DNA of 64,000 nt from a virus. Made by a program: the position numbers and the translations under genes. Positions 5,936-62,350 of this stretch are shown piece after piece. The DNA lies in IMG/VR virus record IMGVR_UViG_3300005095_000179, positions 13,138 to 77,137 of that record; one strand, given 5' to 3'. The notes beneath the pieces are model-generated. The model was not told where the DNA came from. It ran no database searches and was given only the letters and a program-made list of their open reading frames with translations. Position 1 is the first letter of the stretch; each line of letters starts with the position of its first letter.

Positions 5936-5953
5936 AAAATCTCCTTATTTTAG

Positions 5954-5960
5954 TATTTAA
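5954..5960 (-). promoter_or_regulatory. late promoter TTAAATA
   Basis: About 19 nt upstream of the 5935 start. Confidence 0.65.
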
Positions 5961-5964
5961 TAAT

Positions 5965-6447: not shown

Positions 6448-6551
6448 GGTATCATTCGTAATAACGTCTATGTGTAACCGTTAGTTACTGGTCTAGTAAT
6501 ACCATCACTCCAACCAAGTTCTTCAGTTGTATAGTATCTTACGATTCCTTC
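6277..6551. repeat. ~275-bp direct repeat, copy 1
   Basis: Nearly identical to 7291..7570. Confidence 0.95.
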
Positions 6552-7190
6552 ACACTTAGATAACCTAAGTGTTCCGTTATCATTCCACAATGCGCCTTCG
6601 ACACAAGGAGGATAAGAAGGTAATTTCAATAAAACTCCACTTTCTAGATAACTTTGAGTCGCAACATCCTGGTCTTCCTGAGGAGTATAATCAACTTCAA
6701 ATTCCGTACTACCGTCAAGTTTAAAGTATTTATCAACTCCTGCTTCTTCTACACAGTCATCCAAATATTCTTTAGTAGCTACATCTAAATCATCCTGAGG
6801 ATAATACCCATCAACCATCGAGTACGAATATTTCCCAATATAAGGGAACTTATCACTTGAGTGGAAATTAGGTTCTAAATTATCTTCCAACCATTGTTCA
6901 TCAGAGACTCCCCACTTAATCTCTCTCCAAGAACCATTTTCTTTTTTGAATTCTCTTTCACCAAAAACAAAAACGTCTCCGTCAGTTCCTATGTCATCAG
7001 TGGGTTCATCATCTCCGAAATGTACATAGTTACTTACTCTCCAAGAATCCCACTCCTGCCAATGAATTTCCCCATTAACAAGAAATCCGATTTCTTTTGT
7101 ATCAGTAGCGAACACTAATTCATTTTCTTTCAGGACATTATAAGTGAAAGAAAGTTTTTCACCACTTCTAAGAATAATTCCAGTTTCCAT
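6468..7190 (-). CDS. tail-fibre protein with Mtd_N/hyaluronidase-like N-terminal anchor
   Basis: IILRSG...VLKENELVFATDTKEIGF matches the common anchor pattern; also D(D/Q)xDVATKxY motifs. Confidence 0.6.
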   Translation of the reverse strand: METGIILRSGEKLSFTYNVLKENELVFATDTKEIGFLVNGEIHWQEWDSWRVSNYVHFGDDEPTDDIGTDGDVFVFGEREFKKENGSWREIKWGVSDEQWLEDNLEPNFHSSDKFPYIGKYSYSMVDGYYPQDDLDVATKEYLDDCVEEAGVDKYFKLDGSTEFEVDYTPQEDQDVATQSYLESGVLLKLPSYPPCVEGALWNDNGTLRLSKCEGIVRYYTTEELGWSDGITRPVTNGYT

Positions 7191-7200
7191 CTAATTTCCT

Positions 7201-7461
7201 TTATTCATCACAACAATTATCACAAGCGTTACTTGTGTCAGCACCATCAGGAATATTCAAGTAATTCAATGGACACTCTGGGAGCTTATGACAATATCCC
7301 CAAGCACTACTAAAGTTAGTTATCTTACTTTCATCTTCAGCACTTACTACAAATTCTGTCATATTAGTACAATAATAGAACAAGTAATTATAACTTGTTC
7401 TATTCCCGTATCTTATAATCTCACCTTTAGTAACTTTATCTCGATTACTTGTTGGATACAC
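7201..7461 (-). CDS. second copy of the Cys-capped module, lacking LRR repeats (probably the C-terminal part of 7466..8173)
   Basis: Paralogous to 5965..6447; no Shine-Dalgarno before the GTG. Confidence 0.6.
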   Translation of the reverse strand: MYPTSNRDKVTKGEIIRYGNRTSYNYLFYYCTNMTEFVVSAEDESKITNFSSAWGYCHKLPECPLNYLNIPDGADTSNACDNCCDE

Positions 7462-7570
7462 GGTATCATTCGTAATAACGTCTATGTTCTATGTAACCGT
7501 TAGTTACTGGTCTAGTAATACCATCACTCCAACCAAGTTCTTCAGTTGTATAGTATCTTACGATTCCTTC
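7291..7570. repeat. ~280-bp direct repeat, copy 2
   Basis: Nearly identical to 6277..6551. Confidence 0.95.
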
Positions 7571-8173
7571 TTGTACTCCGTAATACACCAATGATCCTTC
7601 TGGAACTCCATAGTAAACTATTGATCCTTCTGGAACTCCATAGTAAACTATTGACCCTTCTGGAACACCGTAATACATAATAGAGTCTTCTGGAATTTCA
7701 TCTGTTGGTCTATCTTCACCAATTGGTCCAGTTATCAACGCTACATAAGTAGAAGTTGTGTATCCCTCACAATAAGAAAATTCACCAATAGCGTGTGAAT
7801 TAAACCCAACAGCGAAAGAATTATCCCCAGTCGCTCCTTGGTTAGTAAACCCACCATTCGTCATTGAGAAATCTACTGCTCTTTCACCTATATTCCCGTA
7901 ATAATTAGGATTTTGACCATAAATTCTCCATCCAGTCTTTCCGTTCTCTTCTATCCTTTCGAGTTCACTTTGTTTACCCAAGTAATCCCAGTGATCTTCC
8001 ATATCGAAGAATTGTTCAATAGTAGTAGAGCTTGTCACATAAGAATTTTTCAACTTAGTGACTATTTTAGTCTCACCGTCGAAATCAATAACTACTATCG
8101 CACCATGGATAGGAACTTCATCTACTTGTGTAGAGAACTTATCATTAAAAACAAATATTGGTGTAGATTTCAT
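7466..8173 (-). CDS. tail-fibre-associated protein
   Basis: Shares a GxxAVDFS/SFAVG segment with 8176..9777; TTAAATA at 8199..8205 upstream. Confidence 0.6.
   Translation of the reverse strand: MKSTPIFVFNDKFSTQVDEVPIHGAIVVIDFDGETKIVTKLKNSYVTSSTTIEQFFDMEDHWDYLGKQSELERIEENGKTGWRIYGQNPNYYGNIGERAVDFSMTNGGFTNQGATGDNSFAVGFNSHAIGEFSYCEGYTTSTYVALITGPIGEDRPTDEIPEDSIMYYGVPEGSIVYYGVPEGSIVYYGVPEGSLVYYGVQEGIVRYYTTEELGWSDGITRPVTNGYIEHRRYYE
7565..7695. repeat. 30-bp tandem repeat encoding PEGSIVYYGV (about 4 copies)
   Basis: CCTTCTGGAAC(T/A)CC units at 30-nt spacing. Confidence 0.9.
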
Positions 8174-15595: not shown

Positions 15596-18500
15596 TTAAA
15601 TCCTAACCGTGTTAAATCTTAAGTTTCCACATACTGGTCTATCAAAGTCATTAGTTGTTTCCATTACTATCATAACTCTGGTAAGTTTTTGATCTACATC
15701 AATAACTGGGTTCCCATTATCTTGTAGAGAATACTTGAACACTAACTCATCCCAACCATCTCCAAGTGGGGTAGTTTCATTGGTTCTAGGGATGTAATCC
15801 CAACTAACGACCTTTGTGGATGGGTCGACTACTTGAAGATAAGTTTTGATACTTGTCCCTGAAGGCTCATAAGCATCCAATCTAACCTCAACAGAAGCAT
15901 CATGGTAATCAATGTCAATTCCAACTGATGTGTATTTAGAAACTTTCTTAGAGGTACCAACAGCTAGTTGAGCATCAACGTCAAGTACAGGAGACTTTAA
16001 TCCATTTGATGTCACTGAAGCACTTACTCTAATCGCACCTGAATATGACTCTACTAAAGGAATTTGGTCGTATGGAGTTACTTTAAACTCTGAAGGAACA
16101 GTAGTAGTTCCAGTTCTATCCAATAGTTCTATTTTATACTCAATAGAAGTCCCCTCATACACCTTAGCATTCGTGTTAAGAATCAAATCGGTAGCGTCAT
16201 TCACTTGTACTGTCTTATATTCGAACACTTCTTGAGTATCGAATGAACAACTATACAACCAGAATCTCATATCTTCTTTTTGATGAGGTGTCCAAGCACT
16301 ATTGTTCGCACTTGAGAACAATACTCCAGTCTGATAAGCTGGGTCAGATAACCAAATATTAGGAGTGTCGATTGTCTTTTCACCTAATTCAGCTACTTGA
16401 AGTTCAGCAACTGGGTCTGAGTTTACGATTATGAATGCGTATTCTTTCATTCCTGTTAATAGAACTTTCTCATCAAATACGAACGCTTGTCTTTGTCCAG
16501 CTGGAACTAAGTCATTAACACTGATTTCTTTGGAAGCAAGTGTCTTAGTCTTATCAGGCATACCAGCAGTTGTTTCTGTTAAGATACAAGTAACGTCAGT
16601 CTCAGAAGCAACATCAAATACAACTTCTATCTTATCTAGTACAGTATCATTACCTAAAGAAAACGTCTGAGCAAGTGGATCTCTGTTAATCGGTCTTCTT
16701 GCACTCGTTTTTGTGATAGTCCAATTTCTTCTAGTGTGCCATCTCCACCATTTTGTGACAGTTGTGGTGATAATTCTACTAAGTGGTTCTGCTTGGAATA
16801 AAGTTTCGCCTTGTACATCAGAATCTCTCCCTACAACCTCAATAAGTTTAGAACCGCTCATCATATTATTAGGAACAGTTATTGTCCCACTAATTGTACC
16901 GACACTATTCGCTTGAAGAGAACCACAAGATACGCCATCCATAGTAATATCTACAGTTTCGTTAGAGTTAAATGCTCCGTCATTGGACTTAATCTTAATT
17001 GGTATATTAGGAATGATGGAAGGAGTCCTTTGAGAAACAATTTTCTTAGATGTACTTTTCGTACTTCCCATAGACTCTTTAGTCGTACTTGAACTAACGG
17101 AAACAGAAGTCCCGACTTTATTCAATTCCCACCAATTAACCCACTTAAAGACTTTTTTAGTTCTAGTAGAAACTCTTGAACTACCTTGAGCAGTCCTGAA
17201 ATAGTTTCTATATATAGTTTTATCTACCCATCTATACACAGAAGGAGAAATTCTAATCTTAGCCTTTGGTGCATGAGAGAACAAATAACTATTAACCTTT
17301 CTTGTCTTTGTATAATGTGGTTGAGACAAAATAGGAGTTCCATTAGGGATAGTTCCTAAGCTGAAAGTATATTGGTCATCTCTAACATCAACATTAGGCT
17401 CTAGATGAAGCGTAATCCAGTCAATGTCCATAACCAAGTTACCATCAATAGTAAGAGCAGTATTCTCATAACCAGAATCTCTATAATCATCATTGATGAA
17501 ATTATCAACAAACACCCCTCTAAAAGATGCTCCTGGTTGTTTTCTAATCATATCGATTTCTAACGCTAATCTTCCTACATTGTATTGGTTATCTTTAATA
17601 CCATCTAGAAGCAACTGAATGTCGCTCATTTTAAAGGTTCTGTTTGTGTCCATAGTTACCACTGGGTCAGAATCCGCACTCAGTAGAACCTCAGCTATCT
17701 TAAGAGTTTTGTCTTTATCATTATCAGGACAAGATGGTACGTCTTCAGAAGGAGTCCCCTTAACATAGTCAAGTTCCCCGTTAGAGTTAATGACAATAGC
17801 ATCTACTCTCTTCAGTACAAAGTCGTAGTCATACTGAACTAAATCTCCAGAATTAAACCCTTGAAGATAAATTTTAGACTTATCTTGTGAGATGTCACCG
17901 TTGGTAGCGTTTCCGTCTGATGTAAATCCACCTTCTGATTCAGTGTATTGATACTTGAAATCTACATAGTAAGTCGAGTTAGCAGCAGGCTCATTACCGC
18001 CAGTCAACCAATTCACACTATCATCAACTAAAGAGTAATCTACTCCTTGAATGAATGTGGTTCCACCTTGATATACCTTAGATATAGAAATTACTGGTTG
18101 ATATTGAGAAGGAAGTTCATCAGCTGCTCCACTATAAGAACCGTGTGTAACTGCAAGCCCTTCCATCACTTTTGGGCCAGTAACTCTAAATACCTTTCTG
18201 ATAGGAGAATGTCTAACGCTATACCATCCAGCACCATTAAAAGTAATAGGTTCGTTCTGTTTCAACTCAAAGTCTATTAATTCAGCTAGTTGCATATATC
18301 TTGAGTGGTCAACTTCATAATTGTACCCATCAACATTAGAAGAACCATTAGCTACAGAGAACCAAAATGGTCCAAGGTTAGTCCCAAGTGTTCCGTCATA
18401 AGGATTAGTTATCCCAATATAACTTACTTCGTGTCCAAACAGTAAGTAGTTACCATTTGAATTTCTGTCGTACTTAGCGACTATATCAGTTACTTCTTGT

Positions 18501-19105
18501 CTATATTGTTCAAAACCTTCGTCTTCGTGAACTTCAGGCGTAACTATTTCTCCATTTTCTACAGAGAATAAAGGGAAATACTCGGTGTCAGATGAATCTT
18601 CATAAGTACTTTCTTCTATAATAGTTCCAGTTATCTTTAATCTTCCAGCACCAGCTCTTCCGTAGTTTCTAGTTTCTAATGCTGGGTCTAATAAAGTACT
18701 ATCTTCTTCTTGAGTCACCTCTTGGTATTGAATCTTGGCACCAATCTTAAACTCTGATGCACCTGCGTCAATGTCTTGATTTAACACTTGAAATAAAGAA
18801 GCATCAATTCTGACAAATTCACCATTGATAAACATCACTCCTTCAGTAGAACTTACATCTACTGTGTAAAGACCAGAAGTTAAATCCTTAGTGATTTCAG
18901 TGTTAATTTCTACTCCAGTAACAATTCCACCGTTCGGAACAAACCTCTTAGTAAGGTCTCCGAAACTTCTCTTCAAGTGAGTCTGGAGTTCATTCACCTC
19001 AGCTGATTGAAGAGAATCTCCTGCTCTGAAAAGTACTTCTTTATAGTCTTTATGAGAAGGAAGTCCTGTTCTGTTGTAGTATCTATCTAGTGAGATATCG
19101 TACAT
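15596..19105 (-). CDS. DUF4815-like large baseplate/tail protein, paralog 2
   Basis: Colinear with 11990..15526 along its whole length. Confidence 0.8.
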   Translation of the reverse strand: MYDISLDRYYNRTGLPSHKDYKEVLFRAGDSLQSAEVNELQTHLKRSFGDLTKRFVPNGGIVTGVEINTEITKDLTSGLYTVDVSSTEGVMFINGEFVRIDASLFQVLNQDIDAGASEFKIGAKIQYQEVTQEEDSTLLDPALETRNYGRAGAGRLKITGTIIEESTYEDSSDTEYFPLFSVENGEIVTPEVHEDEGFEQYRQEVTDIVAKYDRNSNGNYLLFGHEVSYIGITNPYDGTLGTNLGPFWFSVANGSSNVDGYNYEVDHSRYMQLAELIDFELKQNEPITFNGAGWYSVRHSPIRKVFRVTGPKVMEGLAVTHGSYSGAADELPSQYQPVISISKVYQGGTTFIQGVDYSLVDDSVNWLTGGNEPAANSTYYVDFKYQYTESEGGFTSDGNATNGDISQDKSKIYLQGFNSGDLVQYDYDFVLKRVDAIVINSNGELDYVKGTPSEDVPSCPDNDKDKTLKIAEVLLSADSDPVVTMDTNRTFKMSDIQLLLDGIKDNQYNVGRLALEIDMIRKQPGASFRGVFVDNFINDDYRDSGYENTALTIDGNLVMDIDWITLHLEPNVDVRDDQYTFSLGTIPNGTPILSQPHYTKTRKVNSYLFSHAPKAKIRISPSVYRWVDKTIYRNYFRTAQGSSRVSTRTKKVFKWVNWWELNKVGTSVSVSSSTTKESMGSTKSTSKKIVSQRTPSIIPNIPIKIKSNDGAFNSNETVDITMDGVSCGSLQANSVGTISGTITVPNNMMSGSKLIEVVGRDSDVQGETLFQAEPLSRIITTTVTKWWRWHTRRNWTITKTSARRPINRDPLAQTFSLGNDTVLDKIEVVFDVASETDVTCILTETTAGMPDKTKTLASKEISVNDLVPAGQRQAFVFDEKVLLTGMKEYAFIIVNSDPVAELQVAELGEKTIDTPNIWLSDPAYQTGVLFSSANNSAWTPHQKEDMRFWLYSCSFDTQEVFEYKTVQVNDATDLILNTNAKVYEGTSIEYKIELLDRTGTTTVPSEFKVTPYDQIPLVESYSGAIRVSASVTSNGLKSPVLDVDAQLAVGTSKKVSKYTSVGIDIDYHDASVEVRLDAYEPSGTSIKTYLQVVDPSTKVVSWDYIPRTNETTPLGDGWDELVFKYSLQDNGNPVIDVDQKLTRVMIVMETTNDFDRPVCGNLRFNTVRI

Positions 19106-19116
19106 ACTTAGTCTCC

Positions 19117-19599
19117 TTAGAATGCAATTACATATTCAAAAATTTCTCTTGTAGCTGAGTTTCTGAATACTACTGGTTGGTTCTCCATAAGGATTAATTT
19201 CCCTATATCATCAATGTCAGACGGTTGTAAGTAATCTTCACTTTCAGAACCAGCAACAGGAACAGTATTAGTGAAAATTCCTAGTTGATAGATACTATCT
19301 GAAGAGTTGTGAGTCTGTTCAAATACGAACTTAAGGTAAATGAACTTTGTTTCTGAAGAAGAAATAGCCCACTTAACTCCGTCAATTTCTATAACTCCAC
19401 TATCGTCTGGTAAGACATATTCCTTCACTTGAGGTTTAATTCTCCCGACTTCAGCGATTAATTCTGTGGAATTCAAATCTTCTGGTGGAGGATTATCTGA
19501 CCACCCATCACCTGAAGGAAGTGTCCCCCAAGCTAATCTAAAATCTTCGTCGAACATTTCGACAGCAAGTTTTTTGTGACCGCTTTCAACTAATATCAT
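19117..19599 (-). CDS. baseplate/tail-collar-associated protein
   Basis: LAWG...ELIAEVGR...IYQLGIF pattern; lies between wedge and DUF4815-like genes. Confidence 0.6.
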   Translation of the reverse strand: MILVESGHKKLAVEMFDEDFRLAWGTLPSGDGWSDNPPPEDLNSTELIAEVGRIKPQVKEYVLPDDSGVIEIDGVKWAISSSETKFIYLKFVFEQTHNSSDSIYQLGIFTNTVPVAGSESEDYLQPSDIDDIGKLILMENQPVVFRNSATREIFEYVIAF

Positions 19600-19626
19600 A
19601 CTTTATCTCCTATTTTATATTGTAAT

Positions 19627-19633
19627 TATTTAA
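19627..19633 (-). promoter_or_regulatory. late promoter TTAAATA
   Basis: Upstream of the 19599 start. Confidence 0.65.
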
Positions 19634-19660
19634 CCTAACGAACAGTTATTGAACTGAAGA

Positions 19661-21292
19661 CTAACTCTCTTCAGAAGTTTTCTTTTCATATACAGTCTTA
19701 TACACTTCTTCGTCTAGTTCTAGAGTACCAGATGATGTGTATTCGTCCCAAGCCACTGCTTCAGAACTTGTGATGTGTTCAAACACTTTATTGTCTAATG
19801 TTGTCAATTTATAAATATCAACTCCTTCACTCCAATCTAAGTCACCCCAGATATTTACATTACTTTCATAATGATTAGAAGTATCTTCTCTTGTGTATTT
19901 AGATTGCACTACTTTATACACGTCATTATCAAATTCTAATGTCTTAGATAAGATGAATGGATCTCCCCACATATTGATAACTTTCTTGTTATTTGTGAAC
20001 ACGAATGCGGTTTCATCATAATCTCTGGTTATCTTACTTTTTACTAAAGGCTTATAGAAAGAACGCAAAGTCAAAGGCTCAAAGCCAGTGATGAAATTAC
20101 TGTCAGTGTAGTACTGAGTTCTATCACATCCTGGTTTCATGTAAGTCCAATCTTCTGGATCACCTTCCCAACCAATCCATCTATCCCAAGTATCACCACT
20201 GTCCCAATAAAGTGGTTCTCTTTCTTTATCTAAATGGACTCTAACTAAGTTAGTGATATTAATATCACCCCACTCAAAATGGTCTTCCCAAGTCATTCCT
20301 GAGTCCCACTTTCCAGTACCAAACATAGTAGAAGGTAATAATTGGACAAACTTCCCTTTATGGACTGAGTACTTAGTGTTGAATATCTTATTCTCTCTCA
20401 GGTCATCAAGAATCAAATCTGAAGAAAGTTTCTTAATAACGAAATACTCAACCATTTGTTTGTGAATTCTAGTATATAGTCTCCAGATATCCTTCAATGG
20501 TTCGAAACCGTCCTTTATCAGCGTACTATTATATCTCTGGAAACAAATATGGACTCCCTCGAACTTTAGAGCAGTAATATCTGAAAGGTAGTCTGTATCT
20601 AAATAACTATGTGAAAGTATAAATCTATTAGGACAATTTGAGTCCTTGATACTGATAAGAATTGACTCAGCGTTTTTTAGCAACTTCGAACCAATGATTA
20701 GGAGTTTTGCTTTCTCCCACCCAGGAAATTCATCATATAAAAATTCATACGCATTAACAATATTATCGTTATGATACCAATCGATTATTTCAGCTTCACT
20801 TTCTAACTTCTCTAGAAGCTTTCTTTGGATTAGGTTAGTCCCAACATAAGGTTCTAAAGTCCACTGCCAATAATCAAACCCGTCTTCATTGAAGTCTTGT
20901 TTGTTCGCAGCACTCATCGATAACCAAATTTCTTTAGTGCTCAAAGGGTATTTTTGATAGAAATCATCACTATCGAACCCTGCCCCAGTAGTTTGTGTGT
21001 ACCAGTCGTACGGTGCTGCTTGAACCCAGTTAATTAATGAATACCAATTAAGAAGGGCTAATCCACCATCACCAGTCCTGAAGAACTCACTCGCTTCGTG
21101 GAGATACATCCTAATTTCAGCATCAGTCCACTTCGTTTCGTAGTGGCACATAAGTTCAGAAACCTTCTTATATAGAGGATTCTCTCTTAAGTGATTAGGG
21201 ATGTATCTACTGACACAGTTAAATTCCCTTGTATCTATAACTGTGTCATTCCCGTCATAAGGAGGATGGGGATTATTTGGTGTAAAGTTCAT
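19661..21292 (-). CDS. putative baseplate wedge protein (gp7/gpI-like position)
   Basis: Follows the gp6-like gene; contains Trp-Asp-rich repeats. Confidence 0.45.
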   Translation of the reverse strand: MNFTPNNPHPPYDGNDTVIDTREFNCVSRYIPNHLRENPLYKKVSELMCHYETKWTDAEIRMYLHEASEFFRTGDGGLALLNWYSLINWVQAAPYDWYTQTTGAGFDSDDFYQKYPLSTKEIWLSMSAANKQDFNEDGFDYWQWTLEPYVGTNLIQRKLLEKLESEAEIIDWYHNDNIVNAYEFLYDEFPGWEKAKLLIIGSKLLKNAESILISIKDSNCPNRFILSHSYLDTDYLSDITALKFEGVHICFQRYNSTLIKDGFEPLKDIWRLYTRIHKQMVEYFVIKKLSSDLILDDLRENKIFNTKYSVHKGKFVQLLPSTMFGTGKWDSGMTWEDHFEWGDINITNLVRVHLDKEREPLYWDSGDTWDRWIGWEGDPEDWTYMKPGCDRTQYYTDSNFITGFEPLTLRSFYKPLVKSKITRDYDETAFVFTNNKKVINMWGDPFILSKTLEFDNDVYKVVQSKYTREDTSNHYESNVNIWGDLDWSEGVDIYKLTTLDNKVFEHITSSEAVAWDEYTSSGTLELDEEVYKTVYEKKTSEES

Positions 21293-31311: not shown

Positions 31312-31546
31312 TATATGCCTCCATCTCTTGCTCTAAAAATTTATACAGTGATTTCTCTATTGAAATCACATCAAGGAATTCCATATCTCTAAGACTACTC
31401 GGGTTAATCCCCATCTTGTATGCCAAAATGGATTCTTTCTCCGAGAGTATCTTTGGTTCTATCAGAGGTGGTAATGTACTCAATGATGTCTGGAAACGGA
31501 ATGTGGTGTTCAAAACCACAAACCTCCCCGACGATAATTTGCCCAT
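31304..31546 (-). CDS. gp51-like / GT-type chaperone extension overlapping the gp26-like gene
   Basis: LAYKMGINPSSLRDMEFLD resembles tail chaperone extensions; lies in the +1 frame of the upstream gene. Confidence 0.6.
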   Translation of the reverse strand: MGKLSSGRFVVLNTTFRFQTSLSTLPPLIEPKILSEKESILAYKMGINPSSLRDMEFLDVISIEKSLYKFLEQEMEAYNV

Positions 31547-32345
31547 CGTCTGTCTCTTTTTTTGGTGCGTACTTACATTTAAACTTTAAATCTTGTACGC
31601 CATGGAATAATGATACATCAATAGTATCTAATAAGTTTACATCAACTCCAACTAAAGCTTCCTTAATGATTCCTAGTCTTTCTTTCTCAGTTCCATCCAC
31701 AATACAATTCGCCATGAACAAATCTAAATCATCCCTCTTCCCTCTTCTGACCATTTCTTTAAATCTACCAATGGTAATGGGTTCGAACTCTACTTTCGTT
31801 ATTTCTCGGCCATCCTCGGGACTTTTATATGGTACTCTAAGGTCAACCACAATAGGAAGGGGTACTCTAATCTCTTCGAACACAATATCTTCTAAAGTGA
31901 AAAGTGTCTGGTTTGGGTGTCCACACTTTAAACAAGTATAGTTCATAGTAAACTCTAACTCTCCAAAAGTGGCTAACTTTATCAATGTAGAGATATAATA
32001 GAAGTCGAAGTAAGTCAATTTCTCTTTAGGGAATGATGTGTGTATCTTACTTAAGAAGAAATTAATCGTCTCTGCATCACTTAATGTACTAACACTAATG
32101 AACTTCATTTCTCCAAATGTAAACGGTGAGAAATAAATCGTACTCTCTAAAGGATATGTCTTTCCACCAGAAGGTAACATCTCAGGATCAATTGAGTTAG
32201 CTGAAGGAGGTAATTCTCTATTATCTGTTGGAAGAGGGTCTCTCTTTAATTCTGGTTCAGGTATCATCGGTTGGTCGAGTTTTTCTGCATATCTCTTAGC
32301 TTCTAAACTCTCAGCATATGTCACTGGTCGCATTCTTTGTTGCAT
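31404..32345 (-). CDS. baseplate hub assembly chaperone (T4 gp26-like)
   Basis: LPSGGKTY, CLKCGHPN and CKY...CG zinc motifs; upstream of the tape measure. Confidence 0.75.
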   Translation of the reverse strand: MQQRMRPVTYAESLEAKRYAEKLDQPMIPEPELKRDPLPTDNRELPPSANSIDPEMLPSGGKTYPLESTIYFSPFTFGEMKFISVSTLSDAETINFFLSKIHTSFPKEKLTYFDFYYISTLIKLATFGELEFTMNYTCLKCGHPNQTLFTLEDIVFEEIRVPLPIVVDLRVPYKSPEDGREITKVEFEPITIGRFKEMVRRGKRDDLDLFMANCIVDGTEKERLGIIKEALVGVDVNLLDTIDVSLFHGVQDLKFKCKYAPKKETDDGQIIVGEVCGFEHHIPFPDIIEYITTSDRTKDTLGERIHFGIQDGD

Positions 32346-32492
32346 AAGTTTTCCTTATAACCTTTTATTACTTTTTGTTTTGTTTACTTATTATAAAATA
32401 TAATCTACTAAGATTACGATTTATAATTTTTAACCTGCGAAATCGGAGGTATTTTTATTTCATCTCTTTTGGCGATTTCAATGGATATGAAC

Positions 32493-32499
32493 TATTTAA
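32493..32499 (-). promoter_or_regulatory. late promoter TTAAATA (leftward)
   Basis: In the non-coding element, upstream of the gp26-like gene. Confidence 0.55.
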
Positions 32500-32642
32500 T
32501 TGATGGTGGAGAGCAAGCTTGGCTGGGGAAGAAATAGTAGAGTGAGGAAATGAGGATTTTATTTTTACTTCTTTTATAGATCAGATTTTTTTAAAAAAGC
32601 TGTTTATTCTAATATATCTTTATTATTTATAACTTCATCATG

Positions 32643-32649
32643 TTAAATA
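32643..32649 (+). promoter_or_regulatory. late-promoter motif TTAAATA (rightward, no ORF downstream)
   Basis: Mirror image of 32493; both read TTAAATAG. Confidence 0.45.
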
Positions 32650-32936
32650 GCATCCGTGACCCTCCTCCAGACTTTCTTCCTTTCACCTTGATGAATAATT
32701 CCACTGAGCCACTCATTTAATGCTTTATAAGAAGTATCTCTCTACAAAAGATAAAATACCTCTGATTTCGCAGGTATAATTTAATTATGGTAAATGATTA
32801 GTTTTTGTTTATTTTAGATATAAGTAGAACTTATAAAAAGTCATCTTAGAATTAAGACTCTTATAAAGGAGTTTTTAATAGTTATAAGTAATGATTATAA
32901 AAGTGATAGATATAACTTAAAGTTATAATTCATAGG

Positions 32937-33437
32937 TCACTGACCTCTCCATTTAAGAGAACCAGCGACTACTATGAAGTTTACTTGATACTGAGGAATA
33001 GACCCGTCTGAGTCTCCAGTATAAGTGATATTTCCAGTAGGGATAACTTTCCCTTCCCAAACAAATTGAGTTTTGTTTCTGGAGTTAAGTTTGTGAATCG
33101 TGAAGTGTCTTGCTGCTTGTGAAATCATTAATACCTCATACCCATCAGGGGATACGCACTCTTTCATCCAATCAGTGAAAAATTTTGTAACCTTTAAGTC
33201 TTCGGAGTCAATATAGGAGATAGTAAAAGTAGGGTATGTTCTTCCAGATATATATTCCACTCCTGAAGAACCCAACGATTCAGTCGTGACTCCAAAGAAA
33301 CCTAACTCCATAGAGGTAGCAGGAACCCACCCTTTGAACTTCTCATTAAGTCCGTCCAGACTGAATTCCCACTTATTACTTTTGTCCCATTGAATTCTTC
33401 TGAGACTCTCTACGGTTGCTTTCTTTAGAGTTGCCAC
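32937..33437 (-). CDS. tail tube paralog (gp19/gp54-like)
   Basis: Tube-like pattern (NKWEF, FTISYIDSED, FFTDW); adjacent to the tube gene. Confidence 0.65.
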   Translation of the reverse strand: MATLKKATVESLRRIQWDKSNKWEFSLDGLNEKFKGWVPATSMELGFFGVTTESLGSSGVEYISGRTYPTFTISYIDSEDLKVTKFFTDWMKECVSPDGYEVLMISQAARHFTIHKLNSRNKTQFVWEGKVIPTGNITYTGDSDGSIPQYQVNFIVVAGSLKWRGQ

Positions 33438-33448
33438 GATTAGCTTCC

Positions 33449-34033
33449 TTAACTTCCTAAGAATCCAGTCTCAGAGTCAAGTTGGAATGGTACGTCTTCT
33501 TCCCAGAAGAAGTCATAAGATAAAGTAATACTTGGTTGGATGATATCACCAGTCTCAGTCATTTCACCAAGCTCATAGTCTTCTAGGAAAACTCCCTTAA
33601 GAACCCAAGTTGTCCCTTTAGACTCTGACATACTGTTTTGTCTGTTAAGTCTTACTAATCTGATTTCAGCTTCGATTTCAGATTTAGGGTATTGATAACC
33701 AGTGTTTGTACCGATGATATATTCTCTCCAAGACCTAATGAAGTCATGCACTGGAGACTGATGATCTGACTCAACAAGAGTAAGGGTAATTTGACCGCTG
33801 TAGTCATAATCTCCTGGTTGTTTAACCTTGTGTCCACGGATAGTAATCTCAAGAGAAGTACCAGTTCTTTTAGGTACTTCCGCAGAGATAGCTCTTAGGT
33901 TTAGTTCTTGGAAGAATGTTGAATACGCTCCCATAACTTCTGGGATTTTAACGAACTCAACAGCCCATAGGTTGGAGACCATTCCATCTCCAATGTTACT
34001 TCTAATTTGTTCTAAAGTTGGTCTTTTTGCCAT
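33449..34033 (-). CDS. gp19: tail tube protein
   Basis: SAEVP...RGHKVKQPG...ITLTLVE...ITLSYDFF; follows the sheath gene. Confidence 0.85.
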   Translation of the reverse strand: MAKRPTLEQIRSNIGDGMVSNLWAVEFVKIPEVMGAYSTFFQELNLRAISAEVPKRTGTSLEITIRGHKVKQPGDYDYSGQITLTLVESDHQSPVHDFIRSWREYIIGTNTGYQYPKSEIEAEIRLVRLNRQNSMSESKGTTWVLKGVFLEDYELGEMTETGDIIQPSITLSYDFFWEEDVPFQLDSETGFLGS

Positions 34034-34044
34034 CTCTGATCTCC

Positions 34045-36423
34045 TTAAACGCTAAAACTTACTGTGTTGTTTTTGATCACAGTAGTAAAGTTGATATACT
34101 CGATAGAGTAAATTGGTTGAATATAAACATCTACATTCAGTGTGTTATTGATTTCATCCTGAGCAGTGTTGTTTGATCTGTCACAAACTACCTTAAAGTC
34201 TGAAATACCGTTTCTTGAGTGAATACCTACTAAGTAAGAAGTGATTGTTGCGATGATACTCGCTCTAACACTCTCAGTATTCAATTCGAATAGGAATTGC
34301 TCAAGGTACTTAGTAATTGCTGGCTTAAGTTCATTCAATAGAAGTCTAATATTAATTCTATCAAACGCTGAAGGTACTAGAGCAAGAGTTCTTTGACCCC
34401 AGATAGCAATACCTTTTCCTGGTGCAAATCTAATTTGGTTAATTCCATTATCAGCTAGGTAATCCAAGTCAGAGTCAGTGAATTTAATATGTACGTCATT
34501 AACGAATAGTCTTCCTCTCTTGAACCCTGCTGGTGGATACCAAATCTCAAAGTTAGAAGCTGAAAGGTTAATCGCTGCGGCTGCAAATCCGTCTGGTGAA
34601 ACGAAGATTTCTCTATCGTTATACTTATCAGTGATCTTAACATGTGAAGTATAGATACCTGCATAAGAAGAATTAACATTCAAGCTGTAGTTTCTATATT
34701 CAACAATGTCAGTTGCATAAGTGACTGGATTACTTTCAATTTCATAAGGAATAGAAAGTACTGCGAATGAGTCATCTCTAAGTTCACAAATTTCAGCTAG
34801 TTTTCTTTGATAGTTAGGTGAACTCCAACCACCGTCCATGAATACTGTTAGTGGATAGTTGTTTTTGTTATTCATCTTTTCTGCAGCGAAAATCATGTTA
34901 GAGTCAGTTACTGCATCACCGTCATCACCACCAACGAATTTAATGAATGTCTTAGAAACAATATTACCTAAAGAGTCTCTTTCAACAGTTTCTCTTGGTA
35001 GTACATCTTTATCGATGATAGGGTTACTAATCGCATTGATATACTTACTAGCTTGAAGAACTGTTTCAACAAAAGTATTTCTTCCGTATCCGTCTTTAGC
35101 TTCTGGGTCTCTTGAACAAACAAAAGTTTCTACTGGTCTAACTACATCGTTCTTAGTATAAACATTAATAGTAAATGTTCCTGGTGTCTTTTGGTTCTTA
35201 GTTAGAATTTCTACTCTAACATCTTTAGACCAATCCCCTTCATTCACTGAGAATAGACTCATTACTGAATAGAACTCATCTGGGTTGAAGTTTACTAAGT
35301 CACCAACTGGTTGAGGAATAGCACCTGCGTCTTCAAATCCTTGAGCTTGAGCTTCTGTATAAGGAGCTTCACCAGTACTTGTATCAACTAGGCTTGGGTT
35401 GTTAATTCCATCATCGAAAGTTACAGTTGCTCCGTTAGGATTAGAAACTGTAGAACTGATAGCCAAAGTTGTCCCGTCACTCATGTCTGCTAGTACTTCA
35501 AGAACTTTACCATCAAAGTCATTGATAGTAATGTAAGTAGGAGTGATGTTAGAAATAGTAAGTTCTGTCCCACCATCTACGATATCATTTACTGTACAAT
35601 TAACTTCAGGGAAACCTCTATAACCAGTTCCTACTTGGTCTGTCACTGATGGAGTATTAGTATCAACAGTGATTGTAGAACCATTAACAGCAGTTACTGT
35701 TCTTGTGAACTTTTGTCCGTCCGCAACGAATGAGATAACTCTATTCAATAGGTCTGCTGAACTTCCGCTTGAGAAGTTAGAAACTTCAATTGTATCACTA
35801 TCTCCGCCTGAACCGTAATCGGCATCGAAACTAATGAAATCGTCACTCTGAGCAATTTTACCAGTACCAGTTCCAAGGAAGTGTACAGAAGATGAGATTG
35901 GCTGGTCTAGAGTGATTTCAGCACCGTTCACATCAGTAACTGTGAACATTACTTGACCTACACCAAAGATATTAATCTTTCTTCCTAGTAGCTCATCTGG
36001 TGTCCCACCTTGAATGTTAGAGATAGTAACTTTATCACTTGCATCTACGATATTACTAACATCAAATCTAATCTCTTTAAGCTCAGGTGATGTTTCGTTA
36101 ATATTGATATAAGTCTTTCCAGTAGTACCTTCTTGGTTTACGAATGCTCCACCGTTAAGTGCTCCGTTTGCCGCTCTGATTACCCACAAATTAGTTGTTT
36201 GTTGAAGTGCTGCTAGTGCACTATAATAACCAATATTGTAACCTACTTTAATCGTACCGTCTGGTGTGAATTTGTTTAGAAGGTCATTTTCATCTCCAAC
36301 TAAAACAGGCTTGTTGATTGGACCTTTCTTAGCAGGAATAACGATAGCATTATAAACTGATCCTCTTCCTTCTACTCTTGGAACCATTGATCTTTCAAAG
36401 GTTCTTACATTTGCTGCTGGCAT
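34045..36423 (-). CDS. gp18: tail sheath protein with large internal insertion
   Basis: KGPINKPVLV, WYPPAGFKRG, IWGQRTL, RINIRLL, FKVVCDRSNN and PIYSIEYI motifs. Confidence 0.95.
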   Translation of the reverse strand: MPAANVRTFERSMVPRVEGRGSVYNAIVIPAKKGPINKPVLVGDENDLLNKFTPDGTIKVGYNIGYYSALAALQQTTNLWVIRAANGALNGGAFVNQEGTTGKTYININETSPELKEIRFDVSNIVDASDKVTISNIQGGTPDELLGRKINIFGVGQVMFTVTDVNGAEITLDQPISSSVHFLGTGTGKIAQSDDFISFDADYGSGGDSDTIEVSNFSSGSSADLLNRVISFVADGQKFTRTVTAVNGSTITVDTNTPSVTDQVGTGYRGFPEVNCTVNDIVDGGTELTISNITPTYITINDFDGKVLEVLADMSDGTTLAISSTVSNPNGATVTFDDGINNPSLVDTSTGEAPYTEAQAQGFEDAGAIPQPVGDLVNFNPDEFYSVMSLFSVNEGDWSKDVRVEILTKNQKTPGTFTINVYTKNDVVRPVETFVCSRDPEAKDGYGRNTFVETVLQASKYINAISNPIIDKDVLPRETVERDSLGNIVSKTFIKFVGGDDGDAVTDSNMIFAAEKMNNKNNYPLTVFMDGGWSSPNYQRKLAEICELRDDSFAVLSIPYEIESNPVTYATDIVEYRNYSLNVNSSYAGIYTSHVKITDKYNDREIFVSPDGFAAAAINLSASNFEIWYPPAGFKRGRLFVNDVHIKFTDSDLDYLADNGINQIRFAPGKGIAIWGQRTLALVPSAFDRINIRLLLNELKPAITKYLEQFLFELNTESVRASIIATITSYLVGIHSRNGISDFKVVCDRSNNTAQDEINNTLNVDVYIQPIYSIEYINFTTVIKNNTVSFSV

Positions 36424-36435
36424 GTTAAGCCCTCC

Positions 36436-36588
36436 TTATCTTTTAATAAGAACCACACCAGCTGGAAGACTAGCTGGAAGAAGTTCTGGGTTTTTTATAT
36501 TGATGGTTTCGTTTGGGGAAACCACGATAGTCTGACCATCGTATTTTACGGTAACTGGATAGTTCACCGTAGAAACTAATTTTGTCAT
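36436..36588 (-). CDS. small 50-aa protein (not in ORF track)
   Basis: MTKLVSTVNYPVTVKYDGQTIVVSPNETINIKNPELLPASLPAGVVLIKR; AAGGAG RBS; first gene after the late promoter at 36614. Confidence 0.8.
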   Translation of the reverse strand: MTKLVSTVNYPVTVKYDGQTIVVSPNETINIKNPELLPASLPAGVVLIKR

Positions 36589-36613
36589 AAAAATCTCCTT
36601 AATTGATTTTAAT

Positions 36614-36620
36614 TATTTAA
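36614..36620 (-). promoter_or_regulatory. late promoter TTAAATA
   Basis: Upstream of the sheath/tube operon. Confidence 0.7.
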
Positions 36621-36662
36621 TACCACTGTTACTCTCGTAGAGTTATTAACCTTAAAGATAAC

Positions 36663-37791: not shown

Positions 37792-38175
37792 CTACTTTGA
37801 AGAATCATTCACAAAATTTTGTATATCTTTTATCCAAGAGATAAATGAGTCTAGTGTAGTCTTTTTTACTCTTAGAGTCAAGAAAGTTTTATTGGCTAAC
37901 CATTCCCATCTAAAATAGACTAAATTCCCACTAACAGAAACTTTCATGTTAGTTTTGAAGGTCTTAAAGATTACATCAATAAGTCCCTCATTCACTTCAG
38001 ACCCATTAGATTCTTCAGAAAAACTTTTACCTGCGAAATCGGAGGTATCACTATTCGACGAAGCTTGGTCTTCTTTGATTTTTATACCTGCGAAATCGGA
38101 GGTATTACTGCCTTTTTGTTCAAAATGTTCTTCTTCGCCAGTAGTATAGTATTCGAAAAAATCTAATGGTTTCAT
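37792..38175 (-). CDS. hypothetical protein containing two copies of the palindromic DNA motif
   Basis: GGGGA RBS; TSDFAG occurs twice. Confidence 0.65.
   Translation of the reverse strand: MKPLDFFEYYTTGEEEHFEQKGSNTSDFAGIKIKEDQASSNSDTSDFAGKSFSEESNGSEVNEGLIDVIFKTFKTNMKVSVSGNLVYFRWEWLANKTFLTLRVKKTTLDSFISWIKDIQNFVNDSSK
38028..38105. repeat. two direct copies of TACCTGCGAAATCGGAGGTAT, 57 nt apart
   Basis: At 38028..38048 and 38085..38105. Confidence 0.95.
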
Positions 38176-56316: not shown

Positions 56317-56363
56317 TTTCTTTCCTATATTTCTTTACTAATGATACTATTTTAATCTTAAGA

Positions 56364-59015
56364 CTAACTTATCAACTTTGAATGTACTAATGTCTTCTTA
56401 CTTAAGTAATGAGCACCACCACGCTTTTTATACCCAATTTTCCTCAAGAAAGAACTGAAGTCACCCCACCCTATTTTAGAATCAACTTCCTTAGACTCAA
56501 GTGTAGTAATTTTGTCTTTTAACCTTATCTTGTTTTTCTTCAACTTTAGTAAGTATCTAAAATACTGGATTTGAGAATTTTCTGTTGGGTTCTCTGATAT
56601 CAAAAAGCTGATAAGATTTTCTATCTTATTTACATCACTTGTAAGGAAGAATTTTAATTTCTTAAGTTTTTGGATGTACTTAAACCCACTTGTGATTTCT
56701 AATTCAGTCAATTCTTTTAGAGTATCTTTATTAACTTTAGGTTTTAAAGTGGATTTAATTTCAGACATTAATTTTTGAACCGTTTCTTTCCTACTAGAAA
56801 TGTAATTCCTATTGGAAAAATCTTCTAGGACTGATTCTGAATATTCTATTTCTTTAAGACCATTCAGTACAGAAACCAATTCTTGTTCTTCTTTAATTTT
56901 ATTTTCTTTCTTTATAGAAGAAATGTCTATTATTTTACACTTTACTAACTTTTTCTCATTTTTGAATTGGTGTTTTAGTAATAGTTCAAAACTATGTTTA
57001 TGATCATTTTCTAATTTATTGTGAATTATCTCTACCTCATTCACAAATTCTCCTAATTTCGATAGTTTAAAATCCCCATAATCGTCTATATCTATGAGAA
57101 GAGAAGAGTTACTTTTCTTATAGAACTTTTCAATATTGGAATTTACCTCATCATTTAGATTTTCTATTGAAGTTTCTAAATGTTTCTTCCTTTCTTTGAT
57201 GAAATAGTGGATATTACTAGCCTTTCTATTTCTTCTTATCATTTGGATAGAACTAACTACATCAACACTTGTACTTTCGTCTATATGAAAATGGTGATTA
57301 GACTTATTAAGAATACTAACTCCAACTGTTAGGGTTGGAGTGAATATCAGTGTGTCCCACCTATCATGTGTTTCAGATTCAAATATCTTATAAATGTCTT
57401 CCTTTTCTTCTTCAGTTGTTTCTGCCGTAAGGATGATAGTCTTCAGTCCATTTTCTTCACATAAACTTTTAATCGCTTGAGCTACATTTTTTGCGGCACA
57501 ACTTACAGTCACTTTATTTCCAGTCTTTCTTTCTTCTAGTGAAGTATGAAGAATGGAATAAGCTATTTCTTCAGTTGACCTATATTCATAGATAGAAGCT
57601 TCTTCTCTATAATCATTTATAATAGCGTATTTTGGTTTTGTTGGTATTAGTCTATCTTCTATACCAAATAGAAATGCGTCAGCAATCATGGTTCTTTTTG
57701 TTCTCATTGCATACATCAACTTCACTTTATTCAAGTTCCCGTAATCGCTTTTAGAACTTCTAGAATGGAGCATAATTGAAACGAATTCATCTAAGACAAC
57801 TACATCAAAGTGTTTTAGGCTATATCTCCACAGTGAATCATATTGGACTATAAGGTCATCACCAATTTCATAATTACCATCTGAATACATTTTGATGTCG
57901 TATTTAGATTTAAAATCTTTAGCGACTGATATCCTATTTGTTATAAGGATAACTTTCAATTCTTTTTCTCTACTAATCTGAATAACTTTATCTATAATAT
58001 TGGATTTCCCAGTACCCATCGCTGATTTCAGTTTAAATAATCCATCATTTTCTAACCATTCTTGTATTAAAGTTTCTTCTCTATCCCCGACTTCTATGTA
58101 TTTTTTATTCATTGAAATGCATTTATCGTAATACCCAGTACCTGAGAATTCTGTTTCTCTTTCTTTCTTAGTTCTTTCTTCTAAATATTTTTGGACAGGA
58201 GTTTTATCCTTGATGGAATTTAGGATATTGAATGACTTTTCTTTATTAAAGTGATGAAGTATAAACGGATAATTCAAGAACATGAAATACCCGTTGTTTG
58301 TCTTTTCATTCGGGTGAGAAAATGAAATTAGCCCTCTTTCTTCTACAAAATTCACAGGAGTGAATCCTCTTTTAGAGTATTCTTCTACACATATTTTTAC
58401 AATATCATCATCTACATCTATTTCTACCCCAAATGCTTCATATGGTTTCTCTTCTTCTATAACCTCTGCTTTTGGTATGTACTTCCCTTTCTGTAGTAAT
58501 AAGACTCCTTCAGAGAAAGAAGGGGCTTGATAAGCTGCTTCATTAATACTTGTAAAATCTATTTTACAATATTCATATAAGTGTTTATTAATTTCCTTTA
58601 AAATATAAGACACACTCGCTTTGTTATTGAAACCACTAGCTTTTATAATACCTTTCATATTGAATGTATCAACACCATTCCAACTTCTAGAAGGGATTAT
58701 TCCTACATAAAAATCATTTTCTTTAAAGAAATCTAAAATTTTATTTTGGGAGTATCTCGAGTTTACTCTATCAAAATCTATAATAATGAACTCTAAGGTT
58801 TTTGACAAATATTCTTCTAAATCTTTCTTAGTTCTCCTTAGTCTTTTCACTCCATCGAAAGAATAATTTCTGTTCAATACAAAATCATTTCTTAAATATT
58901 CCAATGATTCTTCAATTGAAACTTCGATATTTCTGAACTCGAATGTCTTATCGCCAAACGGTGATTTAGCGAATTTGGAAGATGTGAATTCAGTATCGAA
59001 TACGGTGATTTTCAT
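56364..59015 (-). CDS. SF2 helicase, replication-origin-binding (UL9-like) type, with possible primase-like N-terminal domain
   Basis: SAMGTGKS, ITNRIS, QYDSL, LDEF, TPTLTVGVS and QMIRRNR; N-terminal IIDFD. Confidence 0.75.
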   Translation of the reverse strand: MKITVFDTEFTSSKFAKSPFGDKTFEFRNIEVSIEESLEYLRNDFVLNRNYSFDGVKRLRRTKKDLEEYLSKTLEFIIIDFDRVNSRYSQNKILDFFKENDFYVGIIPSRSWNGVDTFNMKGIIKASGFNNKASVSYILKEINKHLYEYCKIDFTSINEAAYQAPSFSEGVLLLQKGKYIPKAEVIEEEKPYEAFGVEIDVDDDIVKICVEEYSKRGFTPVNFVEERGLISFSHPNEKTNNGYFMFLNYPFILHHFNKEKSFNILNSIKDKTPVQKYLEERTKKERETEFSGTGYYDKCISMNKKYIEVGDREETLIQEWLENDGLFKLKSAMGTGKSNIIDKVIQISREKELKVILITNRISVAKDFKSKYDIKMYSDGNYEIGDDLIVQYDSLWRYSLKHFDVVVLDEFVSIMLHSRSSKSDYGNLNKVKLMYAMRTKRTMIADAFLFGIEDRLIPTKPKYAIINDYREEASIYEYRSTEEIAYSILHTSLEERKTGNKVTVSCAAKNVAQAIKSLCEENGLKTIILTAETTEEEKEDIYKIFESETHDRWDTLIFTPTLTVGVSILNKSNHHFHIDESTSVDVVSSIQMIRRNRKASNIHYFIKERKKHLETSIENLNDEVNSNIEKFYKKSNSSLLIDIDDYGDFKLSKLGEFVNEVEIIHNKLENDHKHSFELLLKHQFKNEKKLVKCKIIDISSIKKENKIKEEQELVSVLNGLKEIEYSESVLEDFSNRNYISSRKETVQKLMSEIKSTLKPKVNKDTLKELTELEITSGFKYIQKLKKLKFFLTSDVNKIENLISFLISENPTENSQIQYFRYLLKLKKNKIRLKDKITTLESKEVDSKIGWGDFSSFLRKIGYKKRGGAHYLSKKTLVHSKLIS

Positions 59016-62299: not shown

Positions 62300-62350
62300 T
62301 TTTATCCTTTGAATTTTTTATAAATGATACTATGTTAGATTAAAGATATC

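Follow-up and report, generated by a model that had tools for sequence, protein, structure and literature searches.

A copied palindrome and a putative late-type promoter in an expanded tail-operon spacer of a distant T4-like phage

Repetitive extragenic palindromic (REP) elements of bacteria are near-identical imperfect palindromes of 20–30 nt, solo or arranged as inverted doublets (bacterial interspersed mosaic elements, BIME, or REPIN), which lie outside genes and are associated with a Y1 transposase, the REP-associated tyrosine transposase (RAYT). Rickettsia palindromic elements are longer (100–150 nt) and very numerous, and occur as in-frame insertions in tolerant protein regions. T4 late promoters (TATAAATA) are gp55-dependent and consist of a -10-type word without a -35 element, and long-range RNase III stems are known from rRNA operons and from T7 intercistronic sites. 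In T4-type phages, cassettes of a stem-loop and a promoter (promoter-early and promoter-middle stem-loops, PeSL and PmSL) occupy insertion/deletion sites, where they promote shuffling (Comeau et al. 2014, PMC4122927; Arbiol et al. 2010, PMC2839356). The subject of the present analysis is a gap of 591 nt (32346–32936) between two tail genes in a 64,000-nt stretch of virus DNA (the window), which comprises bases 13138–77137 of the 77,137-bp IMG/VR record IMGVR_UViG_3300005095_000179; the whole record is referred to as G000.

The gap was resolved into three layers. The first is an ancestral core, a C-rich, G-poor tract followed by the word TTAAATA on the coding strand, which would drive the baseplate-hub operon leftwards. 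The second consists of two oppositely oriented copies of a 19–31-nt imperfect palindrome, and the third is AT-rich, TTATAA-rich filler that derives in part from a tandem duplication. Taken as a whole, the gap is best read as an expanded spacer made of an ancestral promoter, two copied palindromes and AT-rich filler and acting at the level of RNA, an explanation that we put at about an even call. The original prediction for this DNA had instead proposed a symmetric element, with divergent late promoters each pointing at a palindromic motif.

The expanded spacer and its promoter

Relatives for comparison were drawn from IMG/VR as eight related loci (L-numbers) and five whole records (G001–G005); they share just 42–62% protein identity, so that exact insertion break points cannot be drawn. 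The gap separates the gene for the second of two tail-tube-like proteins (tube-2) from that for a baseplate-hub-like protein, and the synteny around the tube-2 gene is kept in the eight related loci. In six relatives the equivalent spacer measures only 59, 74, 76, 102, 107 and 127 nt. It has 351 nt with unrelated AT-rich repeats in L009, and 416 nt in L006, the closest IMG/VR relative, where it contains a reverse-strand open reading frame (ORF) of 96 aa (L006:5585–5875). Relative to the short spacers, extra DNA is present in two blocks, about 380 nt from the tube-2 stop codon to the C-rich tract and about 100 nt from the promoter to the ribosome-binding site, each with one palindrome copy. When the gap was compared with the rest of the record and with the five relatives' records using blastn and tblastx, the palindrome was the sole match; blastn of the region against GenBank phages gave zero matches, and a single-protein locus search in IMG/VR returned nothing. 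Judged by these sequence comparisons, a promoter spacer that is normally short has been expanded in this lineage, and the site is a hotspot rather than a conserved element. The parts of the gap are as follows.

32433–32455, minus strand: left palindrome copy, with the coding-strand sequence TACCTCCGATTTCGCAGGT, within the putative 5' untranslated region of the hub mRNA some 35 nt from its start
32492–32499, minus strand: leftward TTAAATAG, the putative conserved late-type promoter of the baseplate-hub/tape-measure operon, 147 nt from the hub ATG as against 11–49 nt in relatives
32500–32556, minus strand: C-rich, G-poor tract (42% C and 5% G on the coding strand) directly upstream of the leftward promoter, belonging to the spacer's ancestral core
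32557–32642: AT-rich centre, which contains CAGATTTTTTTAAAAAAGCTG, a weak palindrome of A/T, read from the sequence; no test pointed to a function
32643–32650, plus strand: rightward TTAAATAG on the non-coding strand, promoter-like but at chance level by shuffles and strand counts
32651–32700: block that is pyrimidine-rich on the plus strand (purine-rich on the coding strand), with no homology anywhere
32746–32776, plus strand: right palindrome copy, TACCTCTGATTTCGCAGGT on the plus strand and antisense to the genes, a 31-nt block 100% identical to G000:3469–3499
32807–32934: AT-rich filler, a diverged tandem duplication of about 64 nt, with no counterpart in relatives

Some of the relatives' spacers have features of their own. 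The 96-aa ORF of L006, with a hydrophobic segment at its N-terminus, is a moron-like insertion into this hotspot. In L013 the tube-2 stop codon is directly followed by about 7 repeats of a CACAATT-type unit (L013:5865–5940), and in L009 by 3 of CTTAACTCCCG (L009:5650–5690); both stretches are G-poor.

The gap had been described beforehand as the largest gene-free one, and it is the largest ORF-free stretch of the whole record. The runner-up internal gap (36424–36662, minus strand, 239 nt, upstream of the sheath gene) really contains an unlisted 51-aa ORF (MTKLVSTVNYPV...) with its own TTAAATA word and AAGGAG ribosome-binding site. No credible ORF was found on either strand of the 591-nt gap, the longest being 42, 29, 26 and 22 aa and all lacking a ribosome-binding site, in agreement with the earlier statement that a rightward transcript would have no ORF. 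The pyrimidine-rich block ends in GGAGGAGGG-N6-ATG, which opens just an 8-codon ORF. A decayed gene was considered and dropped, given the absence of homology and, beyond those 8 codons, of any ORF that has a ribosome-binding site.

The minus strand carries all but one of the approximately 76 ORFs. The 8-mer TTAAATAG is located as originally predicted (32492–32499, minus strand, and 32643–32650, plus strand) and is not enriched in the record (6 observed, 7.2 expected). The 7-mer TTAAATA has 26 copies on the coding strand of the record, 15 of them intergenic, where intergenic DNA makes up 4.9% of the record; on the plus strand there are 6 copies, and the 3 that are intergenic roughly match an estimate from composition only (our own arithmetic). 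The 15 intergenic coding-strand copies stand shortly upstream of start codons, many of these with an AAGGAG-type ribosome-binding site, and in G000 they precede structural and packaging genes only. The same coding-strand and intergenic bias was seen in all five relatives' records. At the hub gene, TTAAATA lies 11–49 nt upstream in 8/8 related loci, and in all 8 it is preceded by a G-poor tract (0–9% G, 15–41% C; usually C-rich). Since this arrangement of G-poor/C-rich tract and TTAAATA is present in the window too, the leftward copy is taken as the ancestral promoter of the hub operon.

TTAAATA appears to be a clade-wide promoter-like word of late type, named late by analogy with the T4 word TATAAATA. 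It shares with T4-type late promoters the form of a -10-type word, short and rich in A/T, that stands without a -35 element shortly ahead of structural genes on the coding strand. A single-sequence protein search with T4 gp55 gave no match in G000 (about half a genome) or in the complete G004, although a short divergent protein may escape such a search. A sigma-70 promoter scan of 60 kb gave counts at or below shuffle expectation, and so lends no support to the palindrome being a promoter. TTAAATA may be usable as a late-promoter consensus for this poorly studied, unidirectional T4-like clade.

The rightward copy differs. At least one TTAAATA was present on a given strand of the gap in 38% of dinucleotide shuffles (P = 0.38), and the rightward TTAAATAG is indistinguishable from chance and most likely coincidental. 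Thus, of the two divergent late promoters that had been proposed, the leftward one stands on strand and intergenic bias and on its recurrence in 8/8 loci, and the rightward one is not supported.

Another repeated word, (A)TAGTATCAT(TAG), stands before replication-module genes on the minus strand (window 56317–56363, 62300–62350 and about 61120–61150) and is probably an early or middle promoter class of G000. One of these sites also has GGTATAATATAG, which is identical to the -10 region of a promoter cassette of G004.

The genes referred to in the text are the following.

34045–36423, minus strand: tail sheath gene (Pfam Phage_sheath)
33449–34033, minus strand: first tail-tube-like protein gene (PHROG)
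32937–33437, minus strand: second tail-tube-like protein (tube-2), 166 aa (PHROG tail tube, phrog_45 / phrog_1842), the last gene of the sheath-tube-tube2 block
31404–32345, minus strand: baseplate-hub-like protein, 313 aa (Pfam T4_baseplate, 4.6e-11; PHROG baseplate hub)
56364–59015, minus strand: Rep-like helicase, 883 aa, similar to the CyRepA1 family of plasmid replication proteins (E = 4e-29; 102 bits, cut-off 200 bits)

Downstream of the hub gene are an overlapping 80-aa ORF and then a 1524-aa NlpC/P60 tape-measure-like gene. The sheath is about 43% identical to sheaths of T4-like Pseudomonas and Rhizobium phages, and on that basis the phage is a distant T4-like myovirus. G000 was estimated at about 50% complete by CheckV. 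G004 (the record of L012) is a complete relative of 154,998 bp with direct terminal repeats and is almost wholly unidirectional. A sequence search with the 883-aa helicase against solved structures gave no relative.

The palindromic repeat and the AT-rich filler

The inverted palindromic motif reported at 32433 and 32756 is genuine. Positions 32433–32455 and 32753–32775 form an inverted repeat of 23 nt, complementary at 22/23 positions (96%), with 297 nt between the arms, and both outward strands do read CAAAAGA...ATAAAA(A)TACCTC(C/T)GATTTCGCAGGT. Its 19-nt core (TACCTCYGATTTCGCAGGT on the coding-type strand) occurs in 5 copies in the 77-kb record at an identity of 18–19 of 19, far beyond chance. 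One sub-family consists of three identical copies, the other of two with the same single C-to-T change; this second pair has in common a 31-nt identical block, which extends asymmetrically on one side beyond the dyad. The copies outside the gap are located as follows.

Within the 79-nt spacer G000:3412–3490, after a 208-aa gene: palindrome copy before the endonuclease VII gene (Pfam 6.9e-14 for endonuclease VII, gp49-like)
38029–38047, minus strand: fourth copy, in frame (DTSDFAG), in the hypervariable linker of a 127-aa gene (ORF127, 37792–38175)
38086–38104, minus strand: fifth copy, in frame (NTSDFAG), in the same ORF127 linker, 57 nt upstream of the fourth

The DNA around each of the five copies is absent from the relatives. 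The spacer before the endonuclease VII gene, which in G000 contains the palindrome and a degenerate second hairpin, has 40 nt in G004 (G004:40834–40873), with a plain TTAAATA promoter where G000 has the palindrome. The two copies in ORF127 are direct repeats, 57 nt apart and both translated as (N/D)TSDFAG. Homologues of ORF127 keep an N-terminal LDF.EYF..GEE motif and a C-terminal NEGL.DV.FK domain joined by unrelated linkers of 11–70 aa; the linker has 44 aa here and 11–21 aa in the L006 and L010 homologues, and the conserved termini remain in frame. A CRISPR-like mini-array in ORF127 (21-nt repeat, 36-nt spacer) was considered and rejected, as the stretch is translated in frame between conserved ends and the repeat is in no host genome.

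The stem of the palindrome is of ACCU/AGGU type: 4–5 outer pairs are separated by a mismatch from 2 inner pairs, which close a loop of 4 nt. Its 18-bp dyad is ACCTnCGA-AA-TCGnAGGT, and the lone variable base is at a non-symmetric position. A covariance model of the hairpin recovered these five copies only, none of them degenerate, the next match scoring 14 bits (E = 0.8). With up to 3 mismatches allowed, the palindrome was not found in the relatives' whole records, and the exact palindrome was not found in IMG/VR. An exact 20-mer was absent from 185,579 prokaryote genomes, so that the palindrome is not a host REP or CRISPR repeat among those representatives. In metagenome contigs a degenerate pattern matched at least 120 stretches, all of them single chance matches in unrelated contexts; the pattern is too loose to inform. 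A role of the palindrome as upstream half of a 'GGTATAAT' promoter like that of G004 was also considered and rejected: just one copy has that word, and the early-type motif of G000 differs (TAGTATCAT).

As identical 21–31-mers stand in unrelated contexts and fall into two sub-families, sequence comparison shows the palindrome to have spread by copy-and-paste to at least 5 sites within the phage. The two arms in the gap are separate insertions and not the ends of one transposon, because the conserved promoter lies inside the repeat-bounded segment.

Two further repeat observations concern other parts of G000. Inside a 99-aa gene, at G000:6767–6784, is a perfect dyad of 18 bp, ACTTGCGAATTCGCAGGT, which is built on the half-site of the palindrome and may have arisen by chance, its expectation being about 0.2 by our own arithmetic. 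Tandem and dispersed repeats with periods of 72 nt and 21 nt in fibre-like genes (G000:1–2300 and about 18500–20700, the latter window ~5400–7600) dominate the record's repeated k-mers.

The filler is distinguished by composition. The gap is 73% AT and contains 10 TTATAA hexamers where 1.4 are expected, a count that 0/2000 shuffles reached, and it holds 10/14 intergenic TTATAA of the whole record. Five of the ten are in the filler at 32807–32934, together with three 22-nt units of mini-palindromes of TATAAG..CTTATA type; the units are diverged duplicates of 75–82% identity.

Folding, transcription and alternative readings

The symmetric layout of purine and pyrimidine blocks claimed in the original prediction did not survive comparison with shuffled sequence. 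The inner arms of the gap aligned no better than shuffles (score 20 against 17.6 +/- 2.5; 51/300 shuffles were at least as good), the inner 269 nt folded like shuffles (z = 0.07 and -1.1), and pairing of the block 32651–32700 with the left block was not above shuffles. The purine/pyrimidine mirror is most likely coincidental, and the gap is not one designed symmetric unit.

What does fold is the terminal repeat. In a 361-nt transcript of either strand the two palindrome copies form the closing stem, with energies of -94.8 and -87.3 kcal/mol (z = -5.5 and -4.5), and this strong fold is due to the terminal repeat alone. On the coding strand the predicted duplex, interrupted by one mismatch and by an internal loop of 6 nt, counts 12 + 17 pairs around an enclosed stretch of about 300 nt. 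On the TACCTC strand the lone variable base retains its pair (C-G to U-G), and 4/5 copies have that strand in mRNA sense. On the other strand (ACCTGCG...) a U-rich tail follows each of the three intergenic copies. The right gap copy, which on the coding strand reads as a hairpin plus such a tail, therefore resembles a feeble terminator of the tube operon; its hairpin has just -4.1 kcal/mol and fails a consensus terminator scan, and the remaining copies would face antisense transcription. The scan of 32200–33100 found no terminator-like site, including between the tube-2 stop codon and the promoter, which makes read-through late RNA plausible. Over 60 kb, terminator counts were slightly above shuffles, and the listed sites gave no strand-specific support for the palindrome as a standard terminator. 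An Rfam search at gathering and permissive thresholds gave nothing relevant, just a spurious mir-181 match, and a tRNA/tmRNA search found none.

Under the favoured explanation, an expanded spacer acting at the RNA level, the inserted palindrome would act on RNA in two ways. Hub mRNA initiated at the promoter would have a small hairpin in its leader, some 35 nt after the 5' end. In read-through transcripts from the tube genes, both copies would pair in a near-perfect duplex of about 23–29 bp with 297 nt enclosed, which is the dominant predicted structure and of RNase III substrate length (a duplex of at least 22 bp is a substrate of this enzyme). Cleavage at the duplex would uncouple the abundant sheath and tube messages from the low-copy hub and tape-measure messages. 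The RNase III step taken by itself is a tentative proposal, possible rather than probable. At the DNA level, the identical copies would supply homology for insertion, deletion or inversion at the hotspot.

Several observations weigh against this explanation. The local palindrome hairpin is weak (-4 to -9 kcal/mol, z of -0.6 to -2.3), and the 4:1 orientation of the copies relative to transcription involves too few copies for significance. A strict protein-binding site could also explain the perfect conservation of the copies. The TTATAA excess is partly explained by duplication and could mark a DNA-binding cluster; together with the CyRepA1-like helicase at 56364–59015, it keeps origin and DNA-binding readings alive. 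As for an agent of copying, no Y1 transposase (Y1_Tnp, PF01797), Resolvase, Phage_integrase or ParB_N domain was found in the 77-kb record, about half of the genome. The palindrome might be a miniature mobile element, a phage counterpart of REP/REPIN moved by an enzyme from the unseen genome half and able to insert into promoter spacers and, in frame, into protein linkers, with the inverted gap pair as its doublet form; we regard this extension as rather unlikely. If true, the mobile palindrome would be a new class of selfish DNA that shapes phage intergenic regions and protein linkers.

The best-surviving rival is an operator-type DNA site, in which a dimeric phage or host protein would bind the 18-bp dyad, perhaps with looping, and regulate late transcription, replication or packaging. 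The dyad symmetry with its variable base at a non-symmetric position, the near-perfect conservation of five copies without degenerate members, and the nucleotide-level conservation even inside a coding region are all consistent with such a site. So are the related perfect dyad ACTTGCGAATTCGCAGGT at G000:6767, the fact that some sites stand alone and others form pairs (an inverted pair at a distance of 324 bp in the gap, a direct one at 57 bp in ORF127) and the TTATAA cluster of the gap. However, 21 identical bases in unrelated contexts are beyond convergence, so that copying is needed anyway, and the 31-nt identical block runs asymmetrically past the dyad. In addition, there is no candidate binding protein and no ParB in the 77-kb record, relatives with the same genes are without the sites, and a match of the G000:6767 type is expected about 0.2 times by chance (our own arithmetic). 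On this evidence an operator is improbable.

A replication origin, proposed earlier as bidirectional, would combine an AT-rich unwinding centre, iteron-like TTATAA and 22-nt repeats, flanking palindromes and a priming or activating promoter with the Rep-like helicase of 56364–59015. The gap is the largest non-coding region, is 73% AT, and has 10 TTATAA against 1.4 expected and three 22-nt units; the 883-aa helicase does resemble the CyRepA1 family (E = 4e-29), at 102 bits and so under the 200-bit cut-off. A further point on this side is that a relative, G002, has a far more iteron-like non-coding region elsewhere, among structural genes. Yet six relatives hold just 59–127 nt at this site and the two longer spacers share no sequence with the gap, the 'iterons' are diverged duplicates of 75–82% identity, and the palindrome sits also in places that cannot all be origins. 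The gap lies within a late tail operon, 24 kb from the helicase gene. Cumulative GC skew fell monotonically across the window with no inflection at the gap, which is weak evidence in a unidirectional genome. We consider an origin very unlikely here.

The G002 region itself (G002, the record of L008, 23.2–24.0 kb, equal to L146:3250–3970) is AT-rich and non-coding, with perfect tandem repeats (18 nt x6, 35 nt x3 and units of 177–186 nt) and an ATCATT microsatellite. It is without counterpart in G000.

Very unlikely too, to the same degree as the origin, is a divergent transcription unit, in which both TTAAATAG words would fire and the shared hairpin would be a signal recognized by protein, whether for antitermination of nut/boxB type, for RNA stability or as the core of two small RNAs. 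The RNA made rightwards would be C/U-rich with CCUCC motifs and antisense to the 3' region of the tube gene. Were the rightward promoter real, all five palindromes would be transcribed in the TACCTC sense, the strand on which alone the variable base retains a wobble pair, and the sequence of the rightward copy is compatible with T4-type late promoters, which need little beyond a short -10 word. Against this, the rightward TTAAATA is no more than chance would give and is not followed by a terminator, no Rfam family matches and the inner region folds as shuffles do, so that the paired non-coding RNAs suggested at first are not borne out. Moreover, the arrangement is not conserved in relatives, and in two copies, being part of a translated ORF, a hairpin signal would be melted by ribosomes.

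An inverton, in which recombination between the 23-bp inverted repeats would flip 32456–32752 and so switch the promoter and leader facing the hub operon, has the typical geometry of 23-bp repeats around a 297-bp promoter-bearing segment. The invertible segment is nevertheless highly unlikely: no serine or tyrosine recombinase was found in the 77-kb record (about half of the genome), TTAAATA faces the operon in either orientation and there is no on/off logic, and the repeat is also present as solo and direct copies elsewhere and is absent from relatives. Least to be expected is a packaging site with the palindrome bound by the small terminase, modelled on the 24-bp sequences repeated in genes 16 and 19 of T4; the palindromes do flank the sheath-tube block (38029/38086 upstream, 32433/32757 downstream), whereas the complete G004 has fixed direct terminal repeats far from the tail module and is without the palindrome motif.

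If the favoured explanation, promoter plus copied palindromes plus filler, is right, what looked like a symmetric origin-like element is an ordinary late promoter with a small copied palindrome, and a false candidate origin is removed.

Comparison with known elements

The promoter word follows the T4 late type in its general form; it differs in being TTAAATA, and the unidirectional genome is unlike that of T4. The predicted duplex is similar to the RNase III stems of rRNA operons and T7 in that complementary segments flank a stretch of RNA and give at least 22 bp in a polycistronic transcript, with the structure here a predicted one only. An intrinsic terminator has a G+C-rich stem of at least 5 pairs with a U-tract, and no such site was found in 32200–33100. 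Where iteron origins have clustered binding sites beside an AT-rich unwinding region, the gap has its TTATAA cluster, three 22-nt units that are diverged duplicates, and 73% AT; a conserved position, adjacency to an initiator and a skew switch were not found. Of the marks of a miniature inverted-repeat transposable element (MITE), 23-bp terminal inverted repeats are present; as to a target-site duplication, ATAATTT is on both outer flanks but offset by 3 nt on the left. A 343-bp unit as one MITE was rejected, since only the 19–31-nt ends recur and the conserved promoter and C-rich tract are inside the bounded segment.

The palindrome shares with the PeSL of T4-type phages that short stem-loop repeats are dispersed in a T4-like genome at insertion/deletion differences, where they may provide recombination homology. 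Unlike PeSL, no sigma-70-type site adjoins any copy (TATAAT follows 1/5, and a -35 is missing from all), and the palindrome is not joined to a Shine-Dalgarno (SD) sequence and start codon: start codons are 58 and 87 nt away, two copies are intragenic and one is antisense. There are five copies only, one of them inverted, in a late structural region and not in early hyperplastic regions. With no sigma-70-type promoter, no SD/ATG and two intragenic copies, the palindrome is not a PeSL. A true PeSL-like family was seen in G004, which has about 16 copies of a cassette of about 40 nt (TTAAGC..CTAAGC..GGTATAATATAG, then SD and ATG), all gene-oriented (for example at 50216, 70679, 73301, 78277, 87999 and 109947); some are preceded by hairpins, with a UUCG-loop hairpin at about 133620.

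With Rickettsia palindromic elements the palindrome has in common its in-frame survival in a tolerant part of a protein; it differs in its 21-nt unit and in having two coding copies. Short hairpin repeats that spread in a lytic phage and survive in frame within a gene are rarely described. In form the palindrome is closest to the bacterial REP, being a multi-copy imperfect palindrome that occurs solo and as an inverted doublet and would be expected to have hairpin, RNase or terminator-like effects in RNA. It departs from REP in its lytic-type phage host, in a doublet spacer of 297 nt instead of tens of nt, and in the 2/5 copies that are intragenic; a RAYT-type Y1 HUH transposase (PF01797) was not found in the 77 kb, about half of the genome. 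By its sequence features, then, the palindrome is probably a variant of the dispersed hairpin repeats.

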